A stretch of 63,581 bases of DNA, filler included, from Folioceros fuciformis (Eukaryota), in the NCBI GenBank assembly GCA_049999805.1. It is 5 parts of 5 records of this genome, joined end to end, with 100 filler letters (N's around TTAATTAATTAA, not from the genome) between each part and the next. Parts side by side here need not be neighbours in the genome. Positions count along the whole stretch, not along the records: positions 1 to 12,150 come from JBNGIO010004128.1; 4 more parts are not named here. One strand, 5' to 3'. Of the stretch, positions 1 to 21,965 are shown one piece after another (position 1 is the first letter of the stretch; each line of letters begins with the position of its first letter). The notes under the pieces are model-generated. The model was not told the DNA's origin. It did not search any database and worked only from the letters and a program-made list of their open reading frames with translations. The position numbers and the translations under genes are program-made.

Positions 1-69
1 GATTCAAATACATACTGTGGGCGGATTCAAATACATACTGTGGGCGGATTCAAATACATACTGTGGGCG
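1..69. repeat. 23-bp tandem repeat, 3 copies, at the window edge
   Basis: GATTCAAATACATACTGTGGGCG occurs at 1-23, 24-46 and 47-69 with no spacers. Confidence 0.9.
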
Positions 70-417
70 GTAGAAAGCACCAACGATGGCCTCTCGGCCC
101 GCTCGACTCTGCTTCTGCATCAGCGAGAGTGGAGGTGTGGAGCTCACCTCGTCCGTGATGACCGACTCCCGTGTCGGTGAAGCTTGCATTAATGCCGACA
201 TCTGTCCCAGCTTTCGGGTCCTATCCTGGATAGGGAAGTACATCCATAAAAGGCAACAGCACAGCGCTGAAAACAGGAACAGGGCATTAGCGACGTCATC
301 CCTCAATATTTAGGCTTTTGATTCTCTCCGCTTTCCGTATTATATCCACGTATGTATGTATGTACGGACTGTATGTATACATATTTTCCATGGCGAGCCC
401 AGCTCCAGATGTTTGAA

Positions 418-3192
418 TCACCAGTAATCCCCGCAGCTGCAGACTCCGTCCCGGAAGTGGTGGAAGCGGGTGGCATCCCTCTGGATGATCTCTCGGCTTT
501 CCACCTTGGACACCATTTTGGCGAAGGTGTGGCAGTCCTGACAAGTCCGCAGATTCTTCATGACGCGGATGGGTGTTCCTGGAGGTGCGTTCATCAAGCC
601 CCACACCATAGCCAGCTTCTCGCTGTGCCCACATAAAGCATGTTCCTTTCTTTCATCACCAGCGGGAAATGGCACCGACCCTATGTCGGGCACATAGCCT
701 GTCTGCCTCACTCTCTCTGCCAATTTCTGCAGCTCGGCGAAGATACTGTAGCTCTGGGGGTGAACTTCATCCCGCACACCAAATTTATGCATTTTCTGGC
801 TCACCTCTATCCAGCTGTACCCAGGCTCCCTGCCCACCCCCGCTGCTTCCATGAGGTTTCGAACATTCCCTACATCGTTCCACCGTTTGGCAGCCGCATA
901 CATGCTGGCCATAGTAGCATATGCTCCAGAATTATTGGGCTCCAGTTGCACCAACGACTGAAAAGCCCGTTCACCCAGAGGTAAATTGGAATGCTGTTTA
1001 CAAGCACCGAGCAAGGATGACCACACCACAGCACTGGGTGGGATGGGCATCTGCTTCACTACCTGCTCTGCTTCTAGAAGACGACCGGCCCGGCATAGAA
1101 GGTCGACTATACAGGCAAAGTGCCTTTCAGCCGGTGCAACGCCATGAGCCTCCGCCATTGTATGGAAGTACCTAAGGCCGACCTCCATTAGTCCTGCGTG
1201 ACTGCACGCTTTCAGTACGCATAGTAAGGTGACGCTGTCTGGCTTGATGTCCTTCTGCTTCATCTCTTCGAACACCTTGACAGCTTCCTTGCCGTCTCCA
1301 TGCTGAGCATACCCGCCGATCATAGCGGTGTAGGACACCACAGAGTGATCAGGCAGACTGTCGAAAGCTTGTCGAGCGTCACCAATGCTCCCGCATTTGA
1401 TGTACATGTCAACAATGGCACTGCCCAGTGGCAAATCCACCTCAACTGACGTCCGTAGTATGTGGTCATGGATTTTTCTGCCATGTTCCAAGGCTGCAAT
1501 CCCAGCACATGCTTTCAAGGCACTCACCAGAGAATAACTGTTGAGCTTCGTGCCACAATCTTGCATCTCGTCGAATAGCTCAAGGGCAGGTCCACATTGC
1601 CCGTGCTGGACGTAACCTGCCAGCAGCACATTCCATGACACAGTGTCCCTGTTGGCGAGTCCGTCTAGCACCTGGCGAGCGTAATCTAAGTTCCCACATT
1701 TGGCATACATATCGATGAGGGTGTTGCCCAATTCTAAATTCACGTAAACTCCATTTCCAATCATGTCTTGGTGGATTTGCCTGCCGAGATCCAAGTCCAA
1801 GAGGTTGGCACAAGCTTTAAGGAGGAGGAGGAAGCTCACTTTGTCCGCTTGAATGCCTGCTTCTTTCATCTGCTTGTAAAGTTGGAGTGCATCCGTGCTA
1901 CGATACGTCTGCGAATACCCGTATATCATCACATTCCACGAGACTACATCCCTGTTTGGCAATATCTTGAAAACGGCAACTGCATCATCCATGCTTCCAC
2001 ACTTGACGTACATGTCCAAGAGCGCATTTCCCACAAAGATATCTGATTCATAACCCCTTCCAACAACTTGACCATGTACCATTTTGCCACGCTCCAGAGC
2101 TGACAGACTGGCACATGCTTGAAGAATGCTGACAAAGGTGTATTGGTTTGGTAAGATTCCAGCCTTCCCCATGTCTTCACAGAGGTCAAGAGCTGCCTCG
2201 CCAGCTCCCTGTTTCGCGTATCCTGACATCATGGCACTCCAGACCACTAGGTCACGAGCAGGCAGTGTGTCGAAAACCATTCGGGCATCCTCAACTCTGC
2301 CACATTTGCAATACATGTCGACAAGCGCACTACCTATGAAAACGTCCAACTCATGCACGCTCTGCATCACATCAGCATGTATCTGTCTGCCCATCTCCAA
2401 GGCCTGCAAGTTAGCACACGCCCTAACAATACTGGCAAGGATGCCTTTGCTTGGCCTGCAGCCTCTGCCTTTCATTTCTGTGTACAAGCGTAGAGCCTCT
2501 TTCCACTTCCTATGCTGGACATAGGGAACAGTCATTGCACTCCATGTTCCAACATCGTATTCCTTCATCCGATCAAACCTTTTCTCAGCATCCTTCAAGC
2601 TCCCGCACTTCAAATACATGTGCCCAAGCGCGTTTCCTAAAGCCACGTCTAAGCCAAGCCCGTTCTTCAGGATCTCATCTTCAACTCGGATCCCCTCATC
2701 CACGTCCCCCACCTTAGCACACCCTTCTAAGGCGTTGAGAAATGTGTACTTATTCGGCCGCAGTCCAGCACCTACCATTTGGTGATAAGCTTTCACAGCC
2801 TCATAACTTTGGCCCCCTTTCCCAGATGCAGCCATGATCGCTGTCCAAGAAAAAGCATCTTTTTCAGGAACCTCGTCAAATACATTACGTGCATCCCTCA
2901 CACTCCCACACTTTGAAAACATGCGTATTCGCAGGCTTCCCAGAACCGAGCTCAAGGGAAATGTACTTTGCATGATGGGAGCCTGGACTCTTCTTCCCTC
3001 CTGCAGTGCCTTCAATTTCATAAAGCCTTCCAACAGACGAACGTAAATAGGAACTGAAATCTGAGTGCTTTGATAGCTGAATCCTTCCACCACCTGTGCT
3101 GCGTCCCGCCATCCGCCTCCCCTGCAGATTGTGTGCACTTCTCTGCTCAACATTTCCTGCATCAAGTGTGCCAAAAGTTCATCCCAACCCAA
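418..3192 (-). CDS. PLS-class PPR protein with E1/E2 and intact canonical (PG/PGW-type) DYW deaminase domain; organellar C-to-U editing factor
   Basis: Intronless 924-aa ORF (first ATG at 3162). It has repeated P-L-S motifs (LxxMYxKCG...A..VF..L..RD.VSW), the PG box PGYSWIEV, GYVPD, HSEKLA, KNLRTCQDCH and terminal CSCGDYW. Confidence 0.97.
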   Translation of the reverse strand: MGWDELLAHLMQEMLSREVHTICRGGGWRDAAQVVEGFSYQSTQISVPIYVRLLEGFMKLKALQEGRRVQAPIMQSTFPLSSVLGSLRIRMFSKCGSVRDARNVFDEVPEKDAFSWTAIMAASGKGGQSYEAVKAYHQMVGAGLRPNKYTFLNALEGCAKVGDVDEGIRVEDEILKNGLGLDVALGNALGHMYLKCGSLKDAEKRFDRMKEYDVGTWSAMTVPYVQHRKWKEALRLYTEMKGRGCRPSKGILASIVRACANLQALEMGRQIHADVMQSVHELDVFIGSALVDMYCKCGRVEDARMVFDTLPARDLVVWSAMMSGYAKQGAGEAALDLCEDMGKAGILPNQYTFVSILQACASLSALERGKMVHGQVVGRGYESDIFVGNALLDMYVKCGSMDDAVAVFKILPNRDVVSWNVMIYGYSQTYRSTDALQLYKQMKEAGIQADKVSFLLLLKACANLLDLDLGRQIHQDMIGNGVYVNLELGNTLIDMYAKCGNLDYARQVLDGLANRDTVSWNVLLAGYVQHGQCGPALELFDEMQDCGTKLNSYSLVSALKACAGIAALEHGRKIHDHILRTSVEVDLPLGSAIVDMYIKCGSIGDARQAFDSLPDHSVVSYTAMIGGYAQHGDGKEAVKVFEEMKQKDIKPDSVTLLCVLKACSHAGLMEVGLRYFHTMAEAHGVAPAERHFACIVDLLCRAGRLLEAEQVVKQMPIPPSAVVWSSLLGACKQHSNLPLGERAFQSLVQLEPNNSGAYATMASMYAAAKRWNDVGNVRNLMEAAGVGREPGYSWIEVSQKMHKFGVRDEVHPQSYSIFAELQKLAERVRQTGYVPDIGSVPFPAGDERKEHALCGHSEKLAMVWGLMNAPPGTPIRVMKNLRTCQDCHTFAKMVSKVESREIIQRDATRFHHFRDGVCSCGDYW

Positions 3193-3584
3193 TTGGACAC
3201 AAACCTGTCAATCCATTCCTTCAACACTCAACTTCTCAATCGTACTTTCAGCTCAGAAAACTCAGCGTGGTCAAAGAAGCGGTCTATACTTTGATTCAGC
3301 CCATCGTCATGTTGGGAACGTTGCTGAGGAAAACCGTGCACCCACGTGTCCGCCAGATTGTCTGCTGCCGAGAAAAGTAAACTCTAAGGTCCAGGCACTT
3401 TGAGGTACCACTACAGAGCAGAAGCCAGAACATTGCTCTGGACAATTCACAATTTTCTGAGACGACATCCTGTCCAACTCTCAAGGAACGTGAGTCCATA
3501 GGCCGAGGAGCCCCACTCCTGGGTGTGGGCTTGGAGCAAGGATCAGACGGGGACTCCCCTATATATGCACAAGCAGCAAACACC

Positions 3585-5262
3585 ATGTGCGCAGCTACTG
3601 GGCTCCCCTTCAACATAAGTCCCGACAGCTACGTTTGTAACAAACGCGGTGTGGTCAGGCTCATCAAGGACATGAAACATGCTCGCCGTGAGATAGGGTT
3701 GGCCAGGCCAGAGCCCTCTCCTCGGGAGGAGGAAGCGCTGGGCGTTTTGCGCGAGGCGTCGCGGAATCCCCACGGCACGGCTTCCGAGCGACGAGATCGC
3801 CTTCAGGCTGCCTGGTCCTCTCTACGATCTGCTGCCGCTGTTTCTTCAACTCCACGGTCCAAGCATGGCCGTAAGAGGAAGGAGCGGGTGGATGGTACTC
3901 CCGGAAGCTCACAGGACCCGAAAGTGGTACTGCTACTGGAGGGATCGCAACGAGGGGATTCAGAGCAGGTCACCAAGCTGCTGCGGGAAGGGGTGAAGGT
4001 GACAGCCAAGGATCAGCAGGGCTTCACTGCTCTCCATCTGGCATCGCTGCATGGACACGTCCACGTGGGTACTTTGATGGCACAAGCTTGAAGACGGTGC
4101 TTGGCCTGGATGCTCTTCATGATGATAATGAGTGTTCTGTTCATGGCTGATTTGATGCCTCGTGTCGTTGGGAATAGGTGGTGAGAGCACTCTTGAGTGC
4201 AGGAGCTGGAGATGGGAGTCGTATTGACAGGAAATCCAAGTCTGGCAACACAGCTCTTCACTTTGCCTGCACAGGAAACCATGCAGAAGTGGCCAGCATG
4301 CTCTGTGGTTACCAGGCCGACGTCTATGCTGCAAATGAGTATGGCCAAACTCCAGTATCTCTCGGTAGGTGCAACATCAGCTTTGCTGCAAAGCTTCAAA
4401 ATGGCAGGTACAACATCATCTTTACTCAACACTCGCCTGAACCAGGTCTGCGGAAGTTGGTGAGCACGGTAGAGGAGCGTCGTCGGCTAGACAAGATTCA
4501 AGCCACCCGGGAGCAGGCACCTCAACTCCGGCTCCATTCAGCAGGCCTGGAGATGGGGATGGAGTCTGCTTGTATGAGGGATCCTGAACCAGGAAATGGA
4601 TGTGCCAGTGCTGGGTACTTGAGAAGGAACACCATTGCTCTCTGGGAATCATATCAGAAGGAATGGGCTGCATTTGCTGTCAAGTTTGCCACTGCTGCTG
4701 CAGTCCCAGTTCAGCAAGTGGGTCCACAAGATCCAGAGATCAGGACGACAGTATTCTACTACGAGGACGTGCCCTGGCCATTCAGAAGAATAAGACTTCA
4801 TGGGTCTGGGTGTGATGGCATCCAAGGTAATGGTTATGTTTTTTTGGCAGGGTTATGCTTTCTTGAGGAATTGAATTTGAGTTCGTTTTGGCAATTATTG
4901 GCCTGACGGTGGGTACTCTCTTGCCCTCGCAGATAAAAGCGATTTGTTTCTGGCACACCTCCCCTTGGCTGGGAAGTCTATGCGATCTGTCGTACAGCTG
5001 GAGCGTCTGCGATGGTACTTGTTAGGAGGAGTGTTTCAGTCGTCTCATCTGGCATCACTCGCATTGACATCTGTCTGATCTAACTGCGATGATCCTTTCC
5101 TTGTGCAGGCATCCAGACAAGTTTGCCCAGATGTTCGGACGGAGGATAGCTGCTTCAGAAAGAGAAGTGATTATGAGAACAGTCCAGGATGTTTGCCAGC
5201 TGATCAATGCCATCGCTAGTGAGACTTTCGGAGGTGAAAGAGTCCCAAGTAGTGGATTCTAG
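3585..5262 (+). CDS. Ankyrin-repeat protein with NFKBIL1/IkBL-like C-terminal domain (spliced; start uncertain)
   Basis: Ankyrin motifs GFTALHLASLHGH, GNTALHFACTGNH and NEYGQTP, then YYEDVPWP. Manual splicing across GT-AG introns (~4827-4932, ~5015-5108) gives LERLRWHPDKFAQMFGRRIAASEREVIMRTVQDVCQLIN, with TAG at 5260-5262. Confidence 0.8.
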
Positions 5263-5288
5263 GGAGTCTTGGATCCAAGCTTTTCAAA

Positions 5289-6364
5289 TTATTTGTTCCT
5301 CAATCTAGGATTGGGTTTGAAGAGCTGCTTCACACCTTCTCCGGGTGAGATGTCCCAATTCTCTACGTGCCTGTGACCAACTTCAAACACGTCAGCTGTG
5401 GTGCCTGGCAGGAAAAAGCGGGTGTTTCCAGTCGTGAACTCCTGGGTGTAGCCTTCACTTACTTTGTGATCTTTCCAGAGTCATTGTCGAAGTAATACTC
5501 TGTGCTGCCACTGGCTGTGATTCACAGGGATGAAGTTGCTCAGGTGGAAGCTCATAATATGATTGCGTATGTAACTGCTTTGTACGGTGCTTACCTGCGA
5601 GAATGGGCCGCCAAGGGAGAGCTAGTACGCAGTTGAATCTCCACTTGGCGTAGATTCTGTCCTGAAGTTGTCCAAGTTGAAACGGTGAATCCCATGCTTC
5701 AAATCCAATCTTAGAACCAAGGCCACAGAAATTGGAGCAATGACGAGCAGCACCTCATATTCCTGCCAGTCCAGTATCTTCAAGCTGGATTCCTCCATGA
5801 AAGATCCCAGATTGCTCACATTCTGCTTGAACCGCTTCAATCCTTTGAACGAAACGAAAGGGTCAGCAAACTCGCAGTCAGCTTCGTATATTCCCATGGA
5901 CATGTTTCCTGCAGCTCCATTCAAAGAAGCCTTGTTAGATGCGCTGCCCCTCTGGGAACAACTGGCTACACCCGCAGCAATTTGTATTTGCCTGTGACAA
6001 AGTAGGACTTCTCAAAGTCCTTCCGAATGGTCTCAACTGCCAATTGCCGGGGCACGGGACTTGGGAGCACCTCCTCATCCTCCACTTCCCCGTCTTTCAC
6101 ACCGGATGGCCGGAACACCGACACCACTTTTCCGAACGCCTCAGACCCGTACCAAGCCAGCTTCACCAACACATTGGACTCCGCTGTTGGCGGGGTTCTC
6201 TCAGCCTTGCATTGGATTCCGGTTCTCACAACATCGAGCCTGTTACACGCATGCCTCAAGGAAATTGGGTTAAGGAAAGAAGATCCTGAGCAAGCAAGGT
6301 CATAGGGGCGAGAAGGGCAAAAAGAGCTGGCGCTTGTGAGCAAGGTCAGGCCAGAGGACGCCAT
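5289..6364 (-). CDS. DUF2358 / SnoaL-NTF2-like protein, probably plastid-targeted (5 exons)
   Basis: Ser-rich transit-like N-terminus. Spliced sequence reads SYFVTGNMSMGIYEADCEFADPFVSFKGLKRFKQNVSNLG...WRFNCVLALPWRPILA...GSTEYYFD...HVENWDISPGEGVKQLFKP, with TAA at 5289-5291. Confidence 0.88.
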
Positions 6365-6457
6365 TCCCTAGCATTCAGCAATCGACGATCACAGTGACAG
6401 CATGTCCTCTGACCGAGCAGGAACAACATAAATAGCTTTTTACATTCACCGTGACCC

Positions 6458-6754
6458 CTGTTTGATATTTATGTCGAGAGGTTTCAGTGGACAAGTCAGG
6501 CTTTTGGAGACATAATCGGCCGATGGCACCTTGGAGAGGGGATCTTGAATAGCCCAGGTACATTGAGTTCTGGCGGGAGAAAGGAGGGACTCCGAGGATA
6601 TTGCGCTCAAGGTAGAGAGCGGGAATGCACGTCTAAGCATGACGCAGGAAGCCGGCCAGATACCTCACAAAGCTGGTGTGAAAGCCAATGTGTAAGGAAA
6701 GGAGGATGTGATTGTGCACATGAGGAGAAGCTGGCCCTTGCATTTGGCCTCATT
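6458..6754 (+). pseudogene. Decayed E2 + DYW:KP-type (putative U-to-C editing) domain relic
   Basis: Reading across frameshifts gives LFDIYVERFQW (E2-like) ... QVH/EF/LAGERRDSEDIALKVESGNARLSMTQEAGQIPH / KLV*KPMCKE / KEDV / CAHEEKLALAFGLI. No CxxC or terminal triplet is visible. Confidence 0.72.
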
Positions 6755-7156
6755 GTGTCCCACACTTCGCGTGGAACAGAATTAGGCCTGCCTCCTCCAA
6801 TTGTACATGCACAACAAGCGCCGCTCGCCCGAGTCCTTGCTGCGCGCGCGTCCCAGCAATCAAGGCGGTCTCTCTTACCACATCCTTTGACAAAAGCCAA
6901 CATGGAGTGCAACGTTAGTTACTTCACGTTTTGCGTACATATCCACCAGGCAATAGAAATCCTAATCCTTACCTTTAAAAGACACCCTATCCATTACCCT
7001 CACGCATTTCAGGTGCATACTTCGGAGAAATGGGCTTTCTTGTGCAAGGCCTGCATGCTTCATTTGGTGAGAAGCAATAAATTCGATATCACCAATACAA
7101 CACATTCATTCGCTACGTGTCATGTGCATGTAACTATGAGGGGCAGAGTTGAAACA

Positions 7157-7342
7157 CTATAGGCAAGCTTGAAATAGACACCTAGTGTGAAGGATGAGAT
7201 TGTGGAACGGTGTAGGCAAGTCTAGAATAGACACCAACTGTAAAGGATGAGAGATCAGGACATCCTTGGCAATGTTGATTGCTTTCCAAAAAGAAGAGCG
7301 ATTGCGAAGGTTAGTACACCCGCCTCCATAAGGTACCAACAA
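7157..7342 (-). mobile_element. Possible degenerate LINE ORF2 fragment
   Basis: RSSFWKAINIAKDVL resembles the S-x-W-K-x-I motif found downstream of plant LINE RT domains. The match is short and weak. Confidence 0.3.
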
Positions 7343-7819
7343 CGATTGATAGCATGACTACCATGCTAGTGGCCCACAGTATCAACCAAGTGACTTTGAG
7401 GATAGTGAGATCATAAACTTGATCCTCTAATCAAGTTGCTAATTGGAGTAAGAAGTTGTGGAGTTGAAGGTGTTGTTTGATGAATCTACTATTAGTTCTC
7501 ATATTGCCTTGTAGGTTGCAATTGAAGGCAAATTTATGAACCACTTCCACATTTGTGTGCTACAAGTTCAAGCACTGCAACTTGCTTGTGACAATGCCCA
7601 TGCAAACTTAGTAATGTTGCAACATTAGCAGTTTGGGAGGGGTAAAAGCATAGACAACGGCCAAGAGCAGCAATGCCTCGAAGCTGCATAAGAAGCCACC
7701 GCCGCCTAAGATATAGGACAATGATAGGTCATTTAGAGGACATGAGAACTTATTTTATTCTAGTTGGAATTACATTTGGTTGTCAATGTTACCGTTGGTG
7801 CTTCAAATTCCAATGGTGG

Positions 7820-8221
7820 ACAACAACCCACCCAAGTTTTGCTCAAGAGATCTGGAGGGAGCTGGGCAGGTGGCTTCGATTGATCTTTCCTAGTGCTAAT
7901 CTCAAGATCACGAGTCAATCAGCCCTATTCAAGTTGGACGCAGCCTCGGGAGAGCTTCTCTTGAAAACCCAATGGTGGGGCTTACTGTGGTCTTCGTGTC
8001 TCTTTCACCTGTGGGCCAACTGGTCCGCGGTGGTTTATGATGGACAGAAGTCGGCCTCACCGAAAGCTTTGCTATGGCGCATATGGGAGCATTTATTGAT
8101 AGCAGCAGAAGCCCTGGAGCAATCCCAACGAAATCAGTTCAAGAGGAAAGACTGGAGGACGGCGGGTCTCCTATCGCCTGGGAAAGATCGCTGGAATCAC
8201 TCGTACCCCTGGGGAAGGTGA
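7820..8221 (+). mobile_element. Non-LTR retrotransposon (LINE) ORF2 C-terminal remnant
   Basis: PSFAQEIWRELGRWL...WWGLLWSSCLFHLWANWSAVVYDG matches the Trp-rich post-zf-RVT pattern (FA..IW...W..W..RN..F). It is next to an assembly gap. Confidence 0.6.
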
Positions 8222-9141
8222 GTATTTAGGGTCTATGAGAGGCTTGGAGGTGGATGTATCAGAGGCTTTGGCAGTATGCAGGTACCATCGGATTGGGGAG
8301 CGCTCACAGAGTGCCTTGTCTTGAGTTTTGGGCTCTAGGCCAANNNNNNNNNNNNNNNNNNNNNNNNNNNNNNNNNNNNNNNNNNNNNNNNNNNNNNNNN
8401 NNNNNNNNNNNNNNNNNNNNNNNNNNNNNNNNNNNNNNNNNNNGGTTTTCCTTTGTATCGTAAGTGGGAGGAGCCTTTCCACTCATAATCAGAATTATTT
8501 TCTTTGCGAAAAAAAAAAAACAATGTGTGTGTCACCAATTGCAAACGGTCTACAGTCCCAAACTTACTTTGGTGGAGATGCAACCATTGTTATGGTAGGC
8601 CTTCATAAAATCTTTGACCTGTCTCCACTTGATCCAAAACCATGGAAGTAATATTGTTGAGTAGTTAGTAATACCGCGCAAGGAGGTTATCCAGGATGGT
8701 GCCTACTAGCACCTCATTCAAACTAATGTTCACGAAGACATCATGTTCTTGCACAACACTTAGGGCGATCGATCCTAATGTCATAAACTCACTTCAGCCA
8801 CAACAATAAAATCATTTGGTAGTGACAATGTTTACCAACTATGTTGGTACATAGTAAAGGAGGACCTCAATGTATTGCACTAAAGCCTACAATCTCGACA
8901 TTGAAGGAAATTACGAAGCCCCTAAGTCATCTACTCCACCGAAGCCAAGAAGCTCCACAATCCACGATTTTCCTAGACTAGTGTAATATGGAACTACCCA
9001 TGTAATATGGCTGCGAATAAAGATGTTGCATCAAAACAATGTAGGAGAATTGGTCAAAAAGAAGCAAATCTTGAAAATATGAATCACATTTCAAGTGTGT
9101 ATGAAACAAGAATTTCCATCGAGAAAGCTATCATGTCGCAA

Positions 9142-9290
9142 TCATTAAGAGTAATGCATTAAATAGGCAAAATTTTAAGCACAAATTGTAAATGTTTTCA
9201 TTTCTACCAAGAAGTCATTAGAGTAGAACATTAAATATGCAAAATGTTAAGCAAAAATTGCAAATGCTCTTATTTGTACTAAGAAGTTGT
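9142..9290. repeat. Degenerate ~73-bp direct duplication
   Basis: tcattaagagtaatgcattaaataggcaaaattttaagc at 9142 recurs as tcattagagtagaacattaaatatgcaaaatgttaagc at 9215. Confidence 0.7.
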
Positions 9291-9327
9291 TCGAGCACAA
9301 CTACTCTATTTCTACATTCATTTTCAT

Positions 9328-11360
9328 TTAAAATCCTAGCCCACCAAAAAACAACCAAACACCACCCGAACCAAGCACGGGTACTTAATCTGTGAACACC
9401 TTTCCATTGTAATTGTTCGCAACATTTTGGGCGAGCTTGAGATTATTAGCATCATGTATGACAAGTGCTCCATTGCCATCCAAGTTTGTGTAATGTAAAA
9501 ATCCTTGATGAGCTTGTGTATCAAGAGTGTTGTCACTCACTGCACCATTACTCTCCACACCAAATCTTCCATTCCCCATTTGCACTTTTGATTGGGGATT
9601 AGACATGAAAACATCTCCTCCCCATTGCACAATAGTTGCATAAGTTTCTTTCAATGAATTAAACAAGGAAGCTGGCCAATAACCAACATTTGTTCCTTCA
9701 ATGGTCAACCATAAATCTCCATTCGTTGTAAGCTACAATACGACATATCATACATTAAGCAACAAGAAGAAAGTTGTGCAAAATATGTCTAGTCCACATC
9801 ATAAGTAGTTTCATAAAAAAACTACTTATCAATAAGTGCAACACCCTAAGAACATGTTGGTTTAATATACCTTATTGATATTGTATAGCATAATTGTGCC
9901 TACATAATTGCCCGTGAAAGCACCACCAAGTACGTATGTAGGATCCGTTTGCACAAATCCAGTACACGCAAGGTTAAAGCAACCTTTGTCATCGTCCACC
10001 TGCCCAATGAGAACAATTACATGAAGTTAACACATCATTCATATCTACATCTATATGTATATATATCTTAATAAAAGGTTGGAATTTTATGTGCTAATCA
10101 TAACATACTACCCATCTTATGAACAAACGAGGTACAACATCTTGTGAATATAATGAGGGATGCACCTGCAAAAGTATAGATTTGAACCATAAGGTTTAGT
10201 ATCAAGCATCAAGAGGTCTTAAAATTATGAGATATTATTTTAAAATATTCAAGAAAGAAAAAATTGAGGATCTTATAAAATGACTTACGTGTCATCCAAC
10301 TTGAACTAGCTCTATGAAATTAATGTGTGTGTCCACAACGTACACAAGAGAGAGATGCGAATTGGAGTAATATGTTGAAGTTGCATCAACAAATGGTTGT
10401 CAAACACTAATTCTGGATCCTCCTCCATTGAACACTCCATGAAGATTACCAACTACAAACTGCACAATTTGAAAGTCGATTTGATGAGGTATTTAGCAAA
10501 GAAGAAAGAAAATTATAGTTTCATTCTACAATATATATACCAATCAAACAAATATGATAAAAGCATGACATACATGAGTAGGAGCATCTGTGGTGTCTTC
10601 AGTAGTAGCAAAATTGGTAGAGATGTTGCTACTTTGATCAATGAAAGACTTGCGCAAAATGTCCCACTTGTGATGAACAAAACCCTCATGTGTCATGGGG
10701 CGTTGAATAGGGATAGTTCCTTCGAGACATGATCCAACTTCTATATGATAGAGCTGCTTAGGACGTTGCTCCCCATTTGCTGAAATTTGTGATTGCAATA
10801 GCTTTGGAGGTGGTTTCTACAACATGTCAACAATAGTCCTCAATTGCCTACTTCCAAGGTTATGATAATAGTAGCAAATAGCTGCACATAATGGATAATC
10901 TTAATTCACATGAACATGTACGCGTGTGAACCAACATCCATACCTGAATTACGTGATCTTTAAACGATGGATGCTGCAAAGTAGGCTGGTGTTCCACCTT
11001 CACACAATCTATGATAGTGCCATCAGAGAGCTGCAACAAGTGACATACACAACGTTAAACTAAATGAGTATTTGACATGATTTGCATACAACTAAGATGC
11101 CCTACACAACGGTTAAATCAAATGAGTGTTTGACATGATTTGCATACAACTAAGATGCCATGGAAAAGGTGGAGTGTAGATTATACTTCATGGGATTCCA
11201 CAAATGGCACATGAACATTTGAGTCCAAAGGCGCACCATTATGGGATAGAGTGTCAGTTGAGGGAAAATTATCTCTAATCAATCGAGTATGACTAATATT
11301 CGGGACATGCATAAACAACACAAACATAGAAACCAACACGAAAGCTGCAAAAGGCTTCAT
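9328..11360 (-). pseudogene. Neprosin-family (DUF4409 pro-peptide + DUF239) gene with intact exon structure but three premature stops
   Basis: Signal peptide MKPFAAFVLVSMF; DGTIIDCVKVEHQPTLQHP; SCLEGTIPIQR; ISV*QP (10400-10402); VQVG*H (10292-10294); VHPSLY..PRLFIRW; GCFNLACTGFVQT; VGYWPASLF; VQWGGDV; MGNGRF; FTD*VP (9385-9387); WLFFGGLGF* (9328). Confidence 0.88.
11046..11160. repeat. ~57-bp direct duplication in the first neprosin intron
   Basis: tacacaac...aaatgagt.tttgacatgatttgcatacaactaagatgcc occurs at 11046 and again at 11103. Confidence 0.85.
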
Positions 11361-12150
11361 GACTACAATTAGTAAACTCAAAGCAAAACAACACACAAAT
11401 GGGTCTTACTGATCACTGATGTTTTGCACAATGGTAGTGGACATACATATATAGGCACTTTAAGATCTTTTTCTTGATAATAAAGATAAATTGATACTTT
11501 TTTTCGATAACTTGGATAAATTTCAAAACCTTTGTTCACTCGGTGCTTATTTAGCCTAAGAATATCCTTGTGTATGCTTTGCTAGTTATATGGAGCTTTG
11601 GATCCAACCTCCGCATCCTCACTGGTACTTTAGCAACCTTGGAAATGGTTGCTTAGGTCTATGCAACTAGGGAACCACTCATTGTTTGTGGTCTATATTC
11701 AAAAAGTTATGTTCCTCATCTTTTGTGTGGAATACTTAATGTTGTTGATTCTATGTGGGTTTCTCATATTTCCACCTTGTAAATCAGTTGTATTACTACA
11801 TGAACCTTGGTAGAAAGAAAAGGATGTGAATCCCTCTCCCGTTACTAACTTTCACATCTTGTATGATAAAATTATTTTCCTTATTCTTATTCAAAAAGTT
11901 TTGCTTTGCATCAAGGTTTCAAACTCAAGAAGTTGGTCTTCTTTGCATCAAGTTCATTTCTTGTTAGATTGGTTGCACTCTAATAGATAAGATTACGATT
12001 AAAGGGAATCTACAGCATGTATCACATGTCTGGTATTGGAGATGTGGGCAGTGAAGCACATCCAACTCTCCCACAGAAAAGCGAGATGTTTTCACGGTTG
12101 CACATTTCAGTTCGTCCGTTTACATTAGTTTCAAGGTCGGCCCTTACAAC

Positions 12151-12250
12151 NNNNNNNNNNNNNNNNNNNNNNNNNNNNNNNNNNNNNNNNNNNNTTAATT
12201 AATTAANNNNNNNNNNNNNNNNNNNNNNNNNNNNNNNNNNNNNNNNNNNN
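12151..12250. other. Artificial scaffold-join spacer
   Basis: 44 N + TTAATTAATTAA (stops in all six frames) + 44 N. Confidence 0.97.
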
Positions 12251-17568: not shown

Positions 17569-20500
17569 TCAGCCTAATTCCATGTGAATGATGCCTGGCC
17601 TCACCTCAAGTCCCGCGTCGATGCTCGCTACGTGAAAAGTTTCCTTAATACTGGGTGTCGTGAGGGTGGTGCAGCCCGCGTGATTATTTGTCAGCCTTCG
17701 ATCAATGGCAGTCAGGTGCGGGTCAGCAGCGCGCTGAGACTGATTTGCCGTTGCCACAAACAAACTAGTCCAAGTGCCGCAAACGGCCGATGAGAAACTA
17801 CATGCATTTGGTCTAGAGAAAGTGGGGTAAGAGGCATCTCGCTGTCCTTGAGGCTGAAGCTCCCTTGTACCATCACACATATCTGCAAATGACGGTTCCA
17901 AATGTGGCACGTAGCTTTCTTTGCTCACTTCAGGAAGCGCTTGCTTTAACATTACTTCGCTATCGGGGTCGTTCTTCTCCTTAACCGAAAAACTATGCAC
18001 CAGGCCGTCTATGTCCGTCCACCAGCTCTGGCCTGGCTGCTTCCATGCCCCTATTCCTCTTCTCCTTGCCTGCAACTCCTGTGCCTCCTCCCATAACTGT
18101 GCACCGGTGTATATGTTGGACATCAGGACGTATGCTGCAGCATCTCTTTTGTCTAGCTTAATTGCTTCGTCGAAAGCCTGCCTTCCCAACTCCACGTTGC
18201 TCCACTTTTGACAAGCACCCAATAAGGTGCTCCAAACTGCACGATCAGGCAGTACAGGCATTGTCCGCACTAAGGCTAGTGATTCGTTCAGGTGGCCTAA
18301 ACGTCCCAGAAGATCCACCATGCACGTGTAGTGCTCCACACTGGGCAGGATGCCGTAGTGTCTGCTCATAACCTCAAAATACTCTCGCCCCTCGTTCACT
18401 AGACCCGTGTGACTGCATACCGTCAGCACATTAAGGAATGTGATGCTATCTGGCTGGAAGCCGGCCTCTCTCATGCTGACTATCAAGTCGAAGACCTTGT
18501 CACTGTCTCCTTGACGGGTGTATCCTGCAATAAGCACACTCCAGGCCACAACATCTCTCTCGGGAAGTGCGTCAAAGACCCGCTGTGCATCCAACATGCT
18601 ACCACACTTTCCATACATGTCTATCAGAGTTCCAGCTAGAAGCACATCTGCTTCAAGCCCTCGTTCCCTAATCTGTGCATGAAGTTGCCTTCCAATATGC
18701 AGAGCTGCAACACTTGCACATGCCTGAAGAAGCCACATAAATGTCACCGAATTGGGTTCCGCCTCTCCCTCTTGTAGCATATCCCTGTAAAAACGAAGAG
18801 CATACTGCCCCAGGCCCTGCTGAGAGTGTCCTGCTATTATGGCATTCCAAGTCACTGCATCCTTTTGACTTAGTCCGTTAAACACGTCCCGAGCATCCTC
18901 CAGGCTGCCGCACTTGGCATACATGTTTACCAGGCTACCACCTACAACTGCATTGCCGTCAAGTCCTTGATCTCTAATCTGCGCATGAAGCTGCTTGCCC
19001 TTCTCCAAAGCTGAGGCACCCACATTTGCACACGCCTGCAGGAGGCACACAAATGTCACAGAATCAGGTACAGCCTGCCCGTCTTGTAGCATAGCCTTGT
19101 AAAGAGATAGGGCAGCCTGTTCCATGCCCTGCTGAGAACATCCAGCTATCATGGCATTCCACGTCACCACATTCTTTTGCCCGAGTCCATCAAACACCCC
19201 CCAAGCATTCCGTAGGCTGCCGCACTTTGCATACATGTTCACCAGGCTCCCACCTACAGCTATATCAGCATGAAGTCCCCGTTCTCTAATTTGTGCATGA
19301 AGCTCCATCCCTTTCTCCAAAGCTGGGGTGCCCAGGTTTGCACATGCTTGCAAGAGGCTCACAAATATCACAGAATCAGCTACGGCCATACCTTCTGTTT
19401 GCATGGCCCTGTAAAGACTAAGGGCTTCTTGCCCCATGCCCTTCTGGGAATACCCTGCTATCATGGCACCCCATGTCACCACGCTTTTTTGCTCAAGTCC
19501 GTCAAACACGCCCCGAGCATCTGCTAGGCTGCCGCACTTTGCATACATGTTTACCAGGCTCCCACCCAGAACTACGTCAAACTGAAGCCCTCGCCCTCTA
19601 ATCTGTGCATGGAGCTGCTTCCCCTCCTCCAAGGAGAGGGTGCCCAAAGCACAAGCTTGCAGAAGGCAAACAAATGTTACAGAATCGGGCGCAACCATGC
19701 CGCCCTCTTGCATTGCCCTGTAAACAGCAAGGGCTTCCTGCCCCATACCTTGCTGGGAATATCCAGCTATCATGGCATTCCACGTCACCACATTTTTAAG
19801 TTCGAGTTTATCAAACAAGATCCGAGCATCTTCCAGGCTTCCGCATTTAGCATACATGTTTATCAGACTCCCACCTACAGCTATGTCAGCCTGAAGTTCT
19901 TGTTGTTTAATCTGTGCATGAAGCTTTTTACCCTCATCCAAAGCCAATTTGCCGAGGCTTCCACATGCCTGCAGGAGGCACACAAATGTCACAGAATTGG
20001 GTGTGGCCACCCCTTCCTCCTGCATTGCCCTGTACAGATCAAGGGCTTCCTTCCCGACGCCCTCCTGGGAATATCCTGATATCATGACATTCCAAGTCAC
20101 TACAGTTTTTTCAGCAAGTCCGTCAAATATGCGGCGAGCACACTCTAGGCTGCCACACTTTGCATACATATTTACTAGGCTCCCACTTACAGCTACGTCA
20201 CCCTGAAGACCTTGTTCCCTTATCTGTGAATGAAGTTGCTTTCCCTCCTGCAGAGCTGAGGGGCCCACAGCTGCACAAGCCTGCAGGAGACACACAAACG
20301 TCACAGAATTGGGTGTAACGATGCCTTCTTCTTGCATAGCCCTGTATACATGCAAGGCTTCCTCCCCCTTGCCCTCCTGAGCACATCCTGCTATCATGGC
20401 ACTCCACGTCACCACGTTTTTCTGACTAAGCCCGTAAAACACCTTGAGCGCTTCTTTCAACCTGCCACATTTTGCGTACATGTCCACCAAGCAGCTACCC

Positions 20501-21129
20501 ACAAAAACATTATGCTGAATTCCACTAGCCAAAACATCAGCATGCACCTGCTGGCCACAATGTAGGTCTGCTCCCCTAGCACACGCCTGGAGGGCTGCCA
20601 CAAACACATGGCCATCTGGCTTCACAGTGTACCCCCGCATCCGCTGATACAGTTGTATGGCCTGTTTATCCTCCCCATGCTTAACGTACGCAGATATTAT
20701 AGACGACCACATGAATGCATCTGGCTTGGCAACCATTGTGAACACATCCATGGCTTCTTGTAACTTCGCATGGGAAGCATACATTCGCAAAATGTGGTTG
20801 CACAAGAACGTGTCTGATTCCTGCCCACTCTTCACGCTGAGGGCATGAACACGGCGACCCAGAAGCAGACCTTCGTCACCTACACATTCTTTTAGGACTG
20901 TGTGAAAGAGAGATTTGGGAACACGGCAGTCCATGTACACCAGAGCTCCCAACGCCTCGACGGCCTCAACCAGCTGACCCTGCTGAACGAGTTTGTCCAC
21001 AGTTTCAGCCGTCGTGCCTCGTCCGTACCCTGCAGGCCAGCCAGGGTTGCGATCGTTTGGGAAAGCCCAGTTGGATGCCGATTGAACACGACCCATCGGT
21101 ACGTTCAGAGCCTGCTGCATATCCACCAC
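17569..21129 (-). CDS. Long PLS-class PPR protein with E1/E2 and WW-type PG box; DYW domain lost at the catalytic site
   Basis: Intronless 1186-aa ORF (first ATG at 21120) with about 8 PLS triplets. The C-terminal part reads GAWKQPGQSWWTDIDGLVHSF...SYVPHL, followed by unrelated sequence lacking HxE, CxxC and DYW. Confidence 0.93.
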   Translation of the reverse strand: MVDMQQALNVPMGRVQSASNWAFPNDRNPGWPAGYGRGTTAETVDKLVQQGQLVEAVEALGALVYMDCRVPKSLFHTVLKECVGDEGLLLGRRVHALSVKSGQESDTFLCNHILRMYASHAKLQEAMDVFTMVAKPDAFMWSSIISAYVKHGEDKQAIQLYQRMRGYTVKPDGHVFVAALQACARGADLHCGQQVHADVLASGIQHNVFVGSCLVDMYAKCGRLKEALKVFYGLSQKNVVTWSAMIAGCAQEGKGEEALHVYRAMQEEGIVTPNSVTFVCLLQACAAVGPSALQEGKQLHSQIREQGLQGDVAVSGSLVNMYAKCGSLECARRIFDGLAEKTVVTWNVMISGYSQEGVGKEALDLYRAMQEEGVATPNSVTFVCLLQACGSLGKLALDEGKKLHAQIKQQELQADIAVGGSLINMYAKCGSLEDARILFDKLELKNVVTWNAMIAGYSQQGMGQEALAVYRAMQEGGMVAPDSVTFVCLLQACALGTLSLEEGKQLHAQIRGRGLQFDVVLGGSLVNMYAKCGSLADARGVFDGLEQKSVVTWGAMIAGYSQKGMGQEALSLYRAMQTEGMAVADSVIFVSLLQACANLGTPALEKGMELHAQIRERGLHADIAVGGSLVNMYAKCGSLRNAWGVFDGLGQKNVVTWNAMIAGCSQQGMEQAALSLYKAMLQDGQAVPDSVTFVCLLQACANVGASALEKGKQLHAQIRDQGLDGNAVVGGSLVNMYAKCGSLEDARDVFNGLSQKDAVTWNAIIAGHSQQGLGQYALRFYRDMLQEGEAEPNSVTFMWLLQACASVAALHIGRQLHAQIRERGLEADVLLAGTLIDMYGKCGSMLDAQRVFDALPERDVVAWSVLIAGYTRQGDSDKVFDLIVSMREAGFQPDSITFLNVLTVCSHTGLVNEGREYFEVMSRHYGILPSVEHYTCMVDLLGRLGHLNESLALVRTMPVLPDRAVWSTLLGACQKWSNVELGRQAFDEAIKLDKRDAAAYVLMSNIYTGAQLWEEAQELQARRRGIGAWKQPGQSWWTDIDGLVHSFSVKEKNDPDSEVMLKQALPEVSKESYVPHLEPSFADMCDGTRELQPQGQRDASYPTFSRPNACSFSSAVCGTWTSLFVATANQSQRAADPHLTAIDRRLTNNHAGCTTLTTPSIKETFHVASIDAGLEVRPGIIHMELG

Positions 21130-21615
21130 GCTAGCTCGTAAAAGCCGTTCAAACAGAGGAGCTCCTTAGGCTCAGGAGCAGTGGTTCTTCTTCCGTGGTT
21201 CGTCATCCCAGAAATTTCCGTCTCCAGCCAGACATATCCTTGAATACGCTTGCACGGATGTTCGATTCTTTCCGAACAATCCGCCCTCGATTTCAGGGGT
21301 GTCCGGGAAGCATCTATCCTGAAGAGACATTACACACATCTGCTGTGCTACTTCAGGAGCTACCGATGGCAAACTTCAACGCTTCAATTTGATCCACCTC
21401 GACCGCATCCTGCATTCTCCTGCGGTCCTGTCTGGCCGTTACCTAGCGTCCGAGGAAGGGGTCCCGCTGGTCTTTCTTCTAGGACTCAAGTTGGCAGACG
21501 AAGGTGCCACCAGGTGAAGTGCCTTCGCAGAACAGGACGTCTGTCTGGAGAGGCATCTTTCAACGACCAGGATCCCTTGTGGCGACAATTTTCTTCGGAT
21601 CCAGTCCTCTCGATC

Positions 21616-21965
21616 GTTTCCCATGATTTTCACCCTAGAAGACATGCAGGAGACGGAAGAGAGATAACAGCTGAAACCGTGTCCGGATCATGGCAGCGGG
21701 GGCAGCTGGATAAGGCAATCGAGGCTCTTGAAGGTCTTGTGAGGACCTACGCTGATGTCTCCGAATTTGTGCTTTAATGCGATCTCATAAATATTGAGAG
21801 GCTAAGAAGGCCCTGGCTCGGCTTGTTCAGGCTCGCGCCTTCAAGAATTAGTATGAAATGAACACGGGCCTGTGCAATCACATTCTTCGCATCTATGCTT
21901 CTCATAGCATGCAACAGGCTATGGACGTGTTCCCTTTGCTTTAAAAACCGGGTATCTTAATCTGG
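21616..21965 (+). pseudogene. Decayed PPR N-terminal fragment, an inverted paralog of the adjacent PPR gene
   Basis: AGDGREITAETVSGSWQRGQLDKAIEALEGLV ... LCNHILRIYASHSMQQAMDVFPLL*KPGILIW aligns with the neighbour's AGYGRGTTAETVDKLVQQGQLVEAVEALGALV ... LCNHILRMYASHAKLQEAMDVFTMVAKPDAFMW. It contains several stops and a frameshift. Confidence 0.85.

Follow-up and report, generated by a model that had tools for sequence, protein, structure and literature searches.

The locus lies in the first part (positions 1 to 12,150) of a window of 63,581 nucleotides from Folioceros fuciformis (GenBank assembly GCA_049999805.1), the window being the whole stretch of DNA that was analysed. Next to a DUF2358 gene, two decayed gene pieces abut; together they are referred to here as the composite. 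The following features were annotated:

421–3207, minus strand: canonical, intact PPR-E-DYW:PG gene (PG box, HSEK, CxxC, DYW end), on the same contig as the relic
5108–6417, minus strand: intact DUF2358 gene with five exons, ATG at 6364 and a 242 aa model (splice joints of an RNA contig, Pfam)
6451–6553: spacer without significant PPR, E or DYW homology, which holds an 'E2-like' peptide (shuffle tests)
6455–7162, plus strand: stop-free frame of 235 codons across the composite, first ATG at 6902 (ORF scan, shuffles)
6554–6778, plus strand: the relic, the decayed middle of a DYW:KP domain of the GRP subgroup, residues ~12–82 of 133 (nhmmer and profiles, tree, paralogue alignment)
6777–6778: tail-to-tail junction of the DYW and PPR pieces; two bases (CA) fit both sides and there is no filler (read by eye against paralogues)
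6777–6954, minus strand: decayed, frameshifted PLS-PPR tract of GRP type (LVDMYAK ... KDVV..TALIAG..AQQGLG..AL ... EEAGLIL; profile E 9e-32, blastn)

A first-pass annotation had placed a hidden DYW:KP relic at 6458–6754. A plus-strand relic does lie here, but its homology runs from about 6554 to 6778. Six-frame translation recovered the peptides listed by that annotation, spread over three successive plus frames from 6555 to 6754. The frame of 6555 gives QVH*VLAGERRDSEDIALKVESGNARLSMTQEAGQIPH and that of 6667 gives TKLV*KPM; KED is also present, and CAHEEKLALAFGLI reads in the frame of 6713. An nhmmer search with a GRP paralogue profile matched 6554–6778 (plus strand) at E 4e-40, far more than chance would give. 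When 6430–6860 was used as a DNA query against the genome (87 Mb, 7240 contigs), the best 40 of 158 candidates scored included 39 non-self matches at 71–76% identity, all confined to positions ~6555–6778; the similarity extends well past the HEEKLALAFG motif. Each of the 19 non-self loci fetched is a long open frame of PPR type in which the KP box and HAEKLALA are both present. Their C-terminal ends read GRP in 17 and DRP in one, and a contig end cuts off the remaining one.

Upstream of 6554, the peptide LFDIYVERFQW, previously described as E2-like, and a supposed KP box added nothing. The anchored score of this stretch was equalled by 59 of 100 shuffles, and the profile score with the real upstream sequence by 164/300 and 207/300 shuffles. 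One profile alignment extended to 6519; a larger profile did not. E2 and KP-box homology upstream of 6554 was therefore rejected, and the KP box, for which this stretch aligns no better than shuffles, would be lost or decayed. No in-frame PLS tract with E1/E2 precedes the relic in one ORF; the only PPR sequence is the 178-base piece, which lies downstream on the opposite strand.

The relic represents about half a domain, not the whole domain that had been annotated. Relative to two paralogues it carries 37–39 substitutions in 206 bases, together with indels of +6 at ~6587, +6 at ~6633, –2 at ~6665, –3 at ~6693, –1 at ~6697, –1 at ~6710 and +6 at ~6748–6760. There are three frameshifts, and TGA stops at 6564 and 6679. 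The active-site motif is HEE, not HAE. The earlier statement that HEEK is one substitution from HAEK does not hold for most of the family: in 56 of 57 GRP-like genes the alanine codon is GCT, GCC or GCA, two changes away from the GAG of the relic, and it is GCG in only one. In one paralogue (L007), the 133-residue domain has VH at 13, HAE at 65, Lys at 88 and CxxC at 93. The relic stops at residue 82, so that the catalytic Lys88 and the CxxC zinc ligands lie beyond the piece. PMC11845758 describes Lys88 as essential for the U-to-C activity of DYW:KP, and PMC11845758 and PMC9478123 give both K88 and CxxC as needed for it. A profile search of the window for the missing C-terminal part matched the PG gene only, and the C-terminal GRP tripeptide is absent. 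The xHP motif before the gating region is absent, as in the 133-residue type. This stretch reads GERRDSEDIA, and its 6-base insertion relative to the paralogues yields no HP.

Differences from the GRP consensus numbered 11/11/17 by codon position in the relic, against averages of 6.7/4.8/15.7 in intact paralogues, and the terminal branch of the relic was 0.29 against a tree-wide median of 0.15. From a rough and noisy partition of the codon-position differences, neutral decay would amount to about 10%. Every sampled word of 4900–7200 is present in two DNA runs, both of which may be the source sample and not an independent individual; on this basis the relic is unlikely to be an assembly slip. 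Because of the frameshifts, the stops, HEE, the absence of K88, CxxC and the GRP end, the flatter codon-position differences and the long terminal branch, the relic very probably encodes no editing enzyme and is non-functional as an editor, in agreement with its earlier designation as dead.

Hornworts have two variants of DYW:KP, DRH and GRP, according to PMC9478123, which also reports that designer GRP proteins edit U to C, that the GRP subgroup was the basis of the KP2/KP3 designs, and that GRP is under-represented in transcriptomes. Both variants are present in this genome, and its GRP paralogues match the published GRP type in their 133-residue domain and Lys at 88. The earlier assignment of the relic to DYW:KP was confirmed and could be narrowed to the GRP subgroup by profiles, identities and trees. 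Of the two outcomes that would have overturned it, a best alignment to canonical DYW:PG and a similarity limited to HEEKLALAFG, neither was obtained. Class profiles scored the relic at 128.7 bits for GRP (22 genes), 69.0 bits for other KP (27 genes, two of them GRP-like and misfiled here) and 14.7 bits for PG (5 genes); the GRP profile is circular in that it consists largely of loci that the relic had served to retrieve, a set picked by motif pattern being less so. A profile of 14 SWW/E+ genes gave no match at the relic. Across 117 intact domains, the mean DNA identity of the relic was 74% for the GRP-like domains (78), 58% for other KP (34) and 49% for PG (5). In a tree of 33 rows, the relic together with GRP was supported at 100/100. 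It also fell inside a GRP subclade of 61 rows with support of 95/90, the whole GRP clade being supported at 83/99, with a bootstrap that was not fully settled.

Like GRP proteins, the relic has VHxFLxGE, EDIALKVES, QExGxxP, LVxKP and HxEKLALAFGL over residues ~12–82 and no xHP motif. Unlike them it is frameshifted, has stops and HEE for HAE, lacks K88, CxxC and GRP end and apparently the KP box, and has no in-frame PPR-E tract; an inverted PPR piece comes next instead. With the DRH subgroup and other KP domains it shares an HAEKLALA-type motif and an EGGHVP-like segment, but it stands apart from them in identity and score and in the position of the GRP clade in the tree. To canonical PPR-DYW:PG proteins (Pfam PF14432, for example the gene at 421–3207) it shows distant homology around HxEKLA; these domains carry SHP, GYVP, HSE and the DYW end. 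An origin from a canonical DYW:PG or WW/E+ gene, or a chance match, is highly improbable. In an AU test on a short alignment, grouping the relic with the five PG rows was not rejected (p 0.25), nor was GRP without the relic (p 0.11), and the features that name the class (KP box, HAE, GRP end) are not kept in the relic. However, the profile scores, the identities and the best tree favour GRP, and the fetched loci uniformly carry the KP box and HAEK. We conclude from these comparisons that the relic descends from the hornwort GRP subgroup of DYW:KP, as a pseudogene fragment that fails the functional features and not as a member protein. The best paralogue is 79% identical and no parent gene stands out, so that one source gene and two cannot be told apart.

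The second fragment, the PPR piece at 6954–6777 (minus strand), had been absent from the first-pass annotation and was revealed by a multi-copy spike in contig depth at 6775–6890. It recurs at 117 non-self places in the genome and is ~74% identical to the PPR tracts of intact GRP genes. Median blastn scores were 64 bits against GRP (82 frames), 34 against other KP, 31 against E+ and 24 against PG; some of these loci had been fetched with the piece itself, and overlapping loci were unmerged. No extension of the piece beyond 6954 was found (291 of 300 shuffles score as high), and 4900–12250 holds no GRP sequence other than the two pieces. PPR-like tblastn matches antisense to exon 1 of the DUF2358 gene (E 0.03–0.26) were rejected, the PPR profile giving E 1.5. 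The composite measures ~400 bases, with both ends sharp and without significant extension. In the alignments, both pieces derive from GRP genes, meet tail-to-tail and have decayed through indels and substitutions; the catalytic half is missing.

The spliced RNA contig of the DUF2358 gene from the same species has its start at 6417, which leaves ~135 bases to the relic; in a relative (a run from another study) the start is at about 6413. The Pfam match to DUF2358 (E 7e-5) lies in one exon and is just under the cut-off. On the other side, spliced RNA joints of an ankyrin gene (4824–5108, plus strand) reach 5108, so that at its 3' end this gene adjoins or overlaps the final exon (5108–5370, minus strand) of the convergent DUF2358 gene. 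In DNA contigs of two relatives the match to the DUF2358 gene, at ~89%, stops at 6450 in one and 6383 in the other; beyond these points they continue for 303 and 379 letters, respectively, unmatched at 80%. This hints that the two relatives lack the composite at the DUF2358 site, which would fit a gain in this lineage and a loss in theirs equally. Subtraction puts the non-coding divergence from one relative at about 14%, a level similar to the decay of the relic, so that the events may have come in either order. No RNA run is recorded as containing the stretch. Among contigs presumed to be RNA there was no cover at 6451–6531, at 6694–6774 or beyond ~7018, holes that prove nothing on expression; the depth at 6532–6693 and 6775–6936 stems from paralogues (loose ends).

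The 235-codon frame is rare under simple null models, being matched in 1 of 1000 shuffles and at 0.2–0.5% under Markov models. Among 93 slices taken from intact GRP genes, 11 had off-frame runs of at least 235 codons. A Pfam scan of the frame gave no match; an atlas search without a usable match and a PDB search with a 40-residue piece, also without a match, were uninformative. The frame is most likely incidental.

To the right of the composite lies non-matching sequence, and the nearest repeat found starts at ~7835. This dispersed repeat (7835–8200) has at least 39 other copies at 79–95% identity and overlaps a frame of 191 codons (7646–8221, plus strand) without a Pfam match, which by eye resembles what we take to be the tryptophan-rich end of a LINE ORF2. 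Two direct copies of 50 bases, 78% alike and 53 bases apart, are present at 7150–7252, and a frame at 9385–9732 (minus strand) resembles, by eye, a neprosin (DUF239) domain.

Further PPR sequences were found elsewhere in the window. A 1198-codon PLS-PPR gene (17569–21165, minus strand) carries at its end a KQPGQSWW box together with a DYW part that is truncated and degenerate (E+ type). Genes with this box presumably belong to the truncated WW/E+ type of hornworts. The closest 13 relatives fetched for this gene, from the best 150 of 910 candidates scored, are likewise truncated. At 21632–21932 (plus strand), an inverted copy of the N-terminal part of this neighbouring gene (20740–21047; 65% identity, E 2e-7) is a second PPR remnant in the window. 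Matches of E+ type also occurred in open frames of 9217 and 5893 codons (G000:C6356:174854-175084 and G000:C5967:67784-67966), which are either extremely long PPR frames or frames through gaps. Short introns and enrichment in E+ genes, given as hornwort traits in PMC13386178, point to a hornwort genome, as does the presence of both KP variants. Organelle genes are all but missing from the assembly: there was a single short COX1-like match with a stop (L153, G000:C1915:2375-2557), which may be mitochondrial DNA copied into the nucleus or a contaminant, and a search for psaA and psaB found none.

The composite is, with high confidence, a pseudogene remnant without function that derives from PPR-DYW:KP genes of the GRP subgroup, the candidate factors for organellar U-to-C editing in hornworts. 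The junction was probably made by one event of double-strand-break repair, with end joining over two bases; this event either deleted the sequence separating two convergent GRP genes or inverted part of a single gene. Convergent KP pairs 1–3 kb apart do occur in the genome (e.g. L113, L131 and L144). A simple inversion with the remainder of the domain at the other breakpoint was rejected, the C-terminal part not being in the window. Later deletions would have removed the outer parts of the composite and about 10% neutral decay would have come after, with editing done by intact paralogues elsewhere in the genome. Death in place would need large losses on each side, and both the sharp ends and the lack of any other gene trace nearby count against it. 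The main alternative on origin, less likely, is that this site never had a GRP gene and the composite was copied in from a GRP locus elsewhere, as strand-switch repair filler or as a retroposed or element-carried copy; it would be equally non-functional. The sharp ends would fit such an insertion, as would the absence of other GRP sequence from 4900–12250 and the points at which the DNA contigs of the two relatives leave the match. Hornworts have 1,500–2,300 PPR genes, expanded mainly by dispersed duplication that was largely linked to retroposition, according to PMC13386178. Against insertion, the repeat listing near the composite had no conspicuous terminal inverted repeats, target-site duplication or poly(A), no high-identity donor was found, and, since the two relatives have many differences from the window in common, a single ancestral loss fits equally well.

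Co-option of the composite is very unlikely. It could have become a proximal promoter part of the DUF2358 gene, upstream of whose RNA-contig start it begins, an antisense source against GRP mRNAs, or a young chimeric gene of 235 codons, and the rarity of that frame under simple nulls speaks for the last. However, the relative makes spliced DUF2358 RNA though its DNA diverges beyond 6450, and the frame has no ATG until 6902 and no Pfam match, while off-frame runs of such length are also seen in intact GRP genes. Identity of about 75% with many indels is poor for small-RNA targeting, and the DYW and PPR pieces, which are different parts of the gene, do not pair together. There is thus only a slim chance that a strand-switch composite now forms part of the DUF2358 proximal promoter in this lineage, or that the frame, made of off-frame DYW and antisense PPR sequence, is a young gene. 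If true, PPR debris would have been recycled into a new function.

The pseudogene remnant has to be seen against the abundance of KP genes. The EKLALA[FY]G pattern gave 202 matches in the genome and none in the reversed control, and at least 78 distinct intact GRP-like domains are present. KP genes make up the larger part of the DYW genes sampled, forming 25 of the 30 best loci found with a PG query. Of 79 KP-motif sites inspected, from the first 100 listed in contig order, 70 were intact and nine broken (about one in nine); 69 passed as intact and ten were flagged, one of them falsely (a KNLLM variant). The broken copies, one of which contains Ns, were called from the assembly sequence. Among the 21 sites skipped, ten had already been seen as long open frames and one was the relic, giving 10 of 90 broken, with the remaining ten outside the count. 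Like the relic, the nine broken copies (L065, L073, L074, L120, L123, L126, L128, L136 and L144) are frameshifted, deleted or solitary KP DYW pieces, and three are short DYW fragments without a normal PPR-E tract. L065 and L123 are solitary DYW pieces and L126 is a deletion fusion, but unlike in the relic, none of the nine showed an opposite-strand PPR piece fused to the DYW part. In L126 (616–1136, minus strand; non-GRP KP), a PPR repeat is fused in frame directly to HAEK, with loss of the E domains and of the N-terminal half of DYW; K88 and CxxC are kept.

Clusters of two to six KP genes over 5–30 kb, mostly GRP-like and in tandem, convergent or divergent order, were located on contigs C4421, C5624, C5629, C5803 and C5827 of the assembly (G000; L113, L129–L134, L141–L145). 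Two further KP domains (L026, L038) have extra residues where most KP domains lack the xHP stretch, and in this position resemble the lycophyte KP4 type, of 136 residues according to PMC9478123. Our literature search returned no study of KP pseudogenes; most subscription papers lay outside it, and we make no claim of absence.

The intact factor noted earlier on the same scaffold is the PG-type PPR-DYW gene at 421–3207 (minus strand). Since the genome has hundreds of DYW genes, its sharing a scaffold with the relic is unremarkable. The earlier reading of turnover of the reverse-editing machinery holds in a trivial sense only: the relic is one broken copy among many intact ones, birth-and-death debris of an expanded family and not a sign of loss of reverse editing. 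The large, mostly intact GRP set of this genome, often clustered and convergent, is possibly more useful than the relic itself. Turnover of reverse editing could be tested, as one relic cannot, by counting broken and intact KP genes across hornworts and comparing the counts with where organellar U-to-C sites have been gained or lost. The relic alone means little, but it fits a picture in which GRP-type reverse-editing genes are born, rearranged and lost like others in large families.
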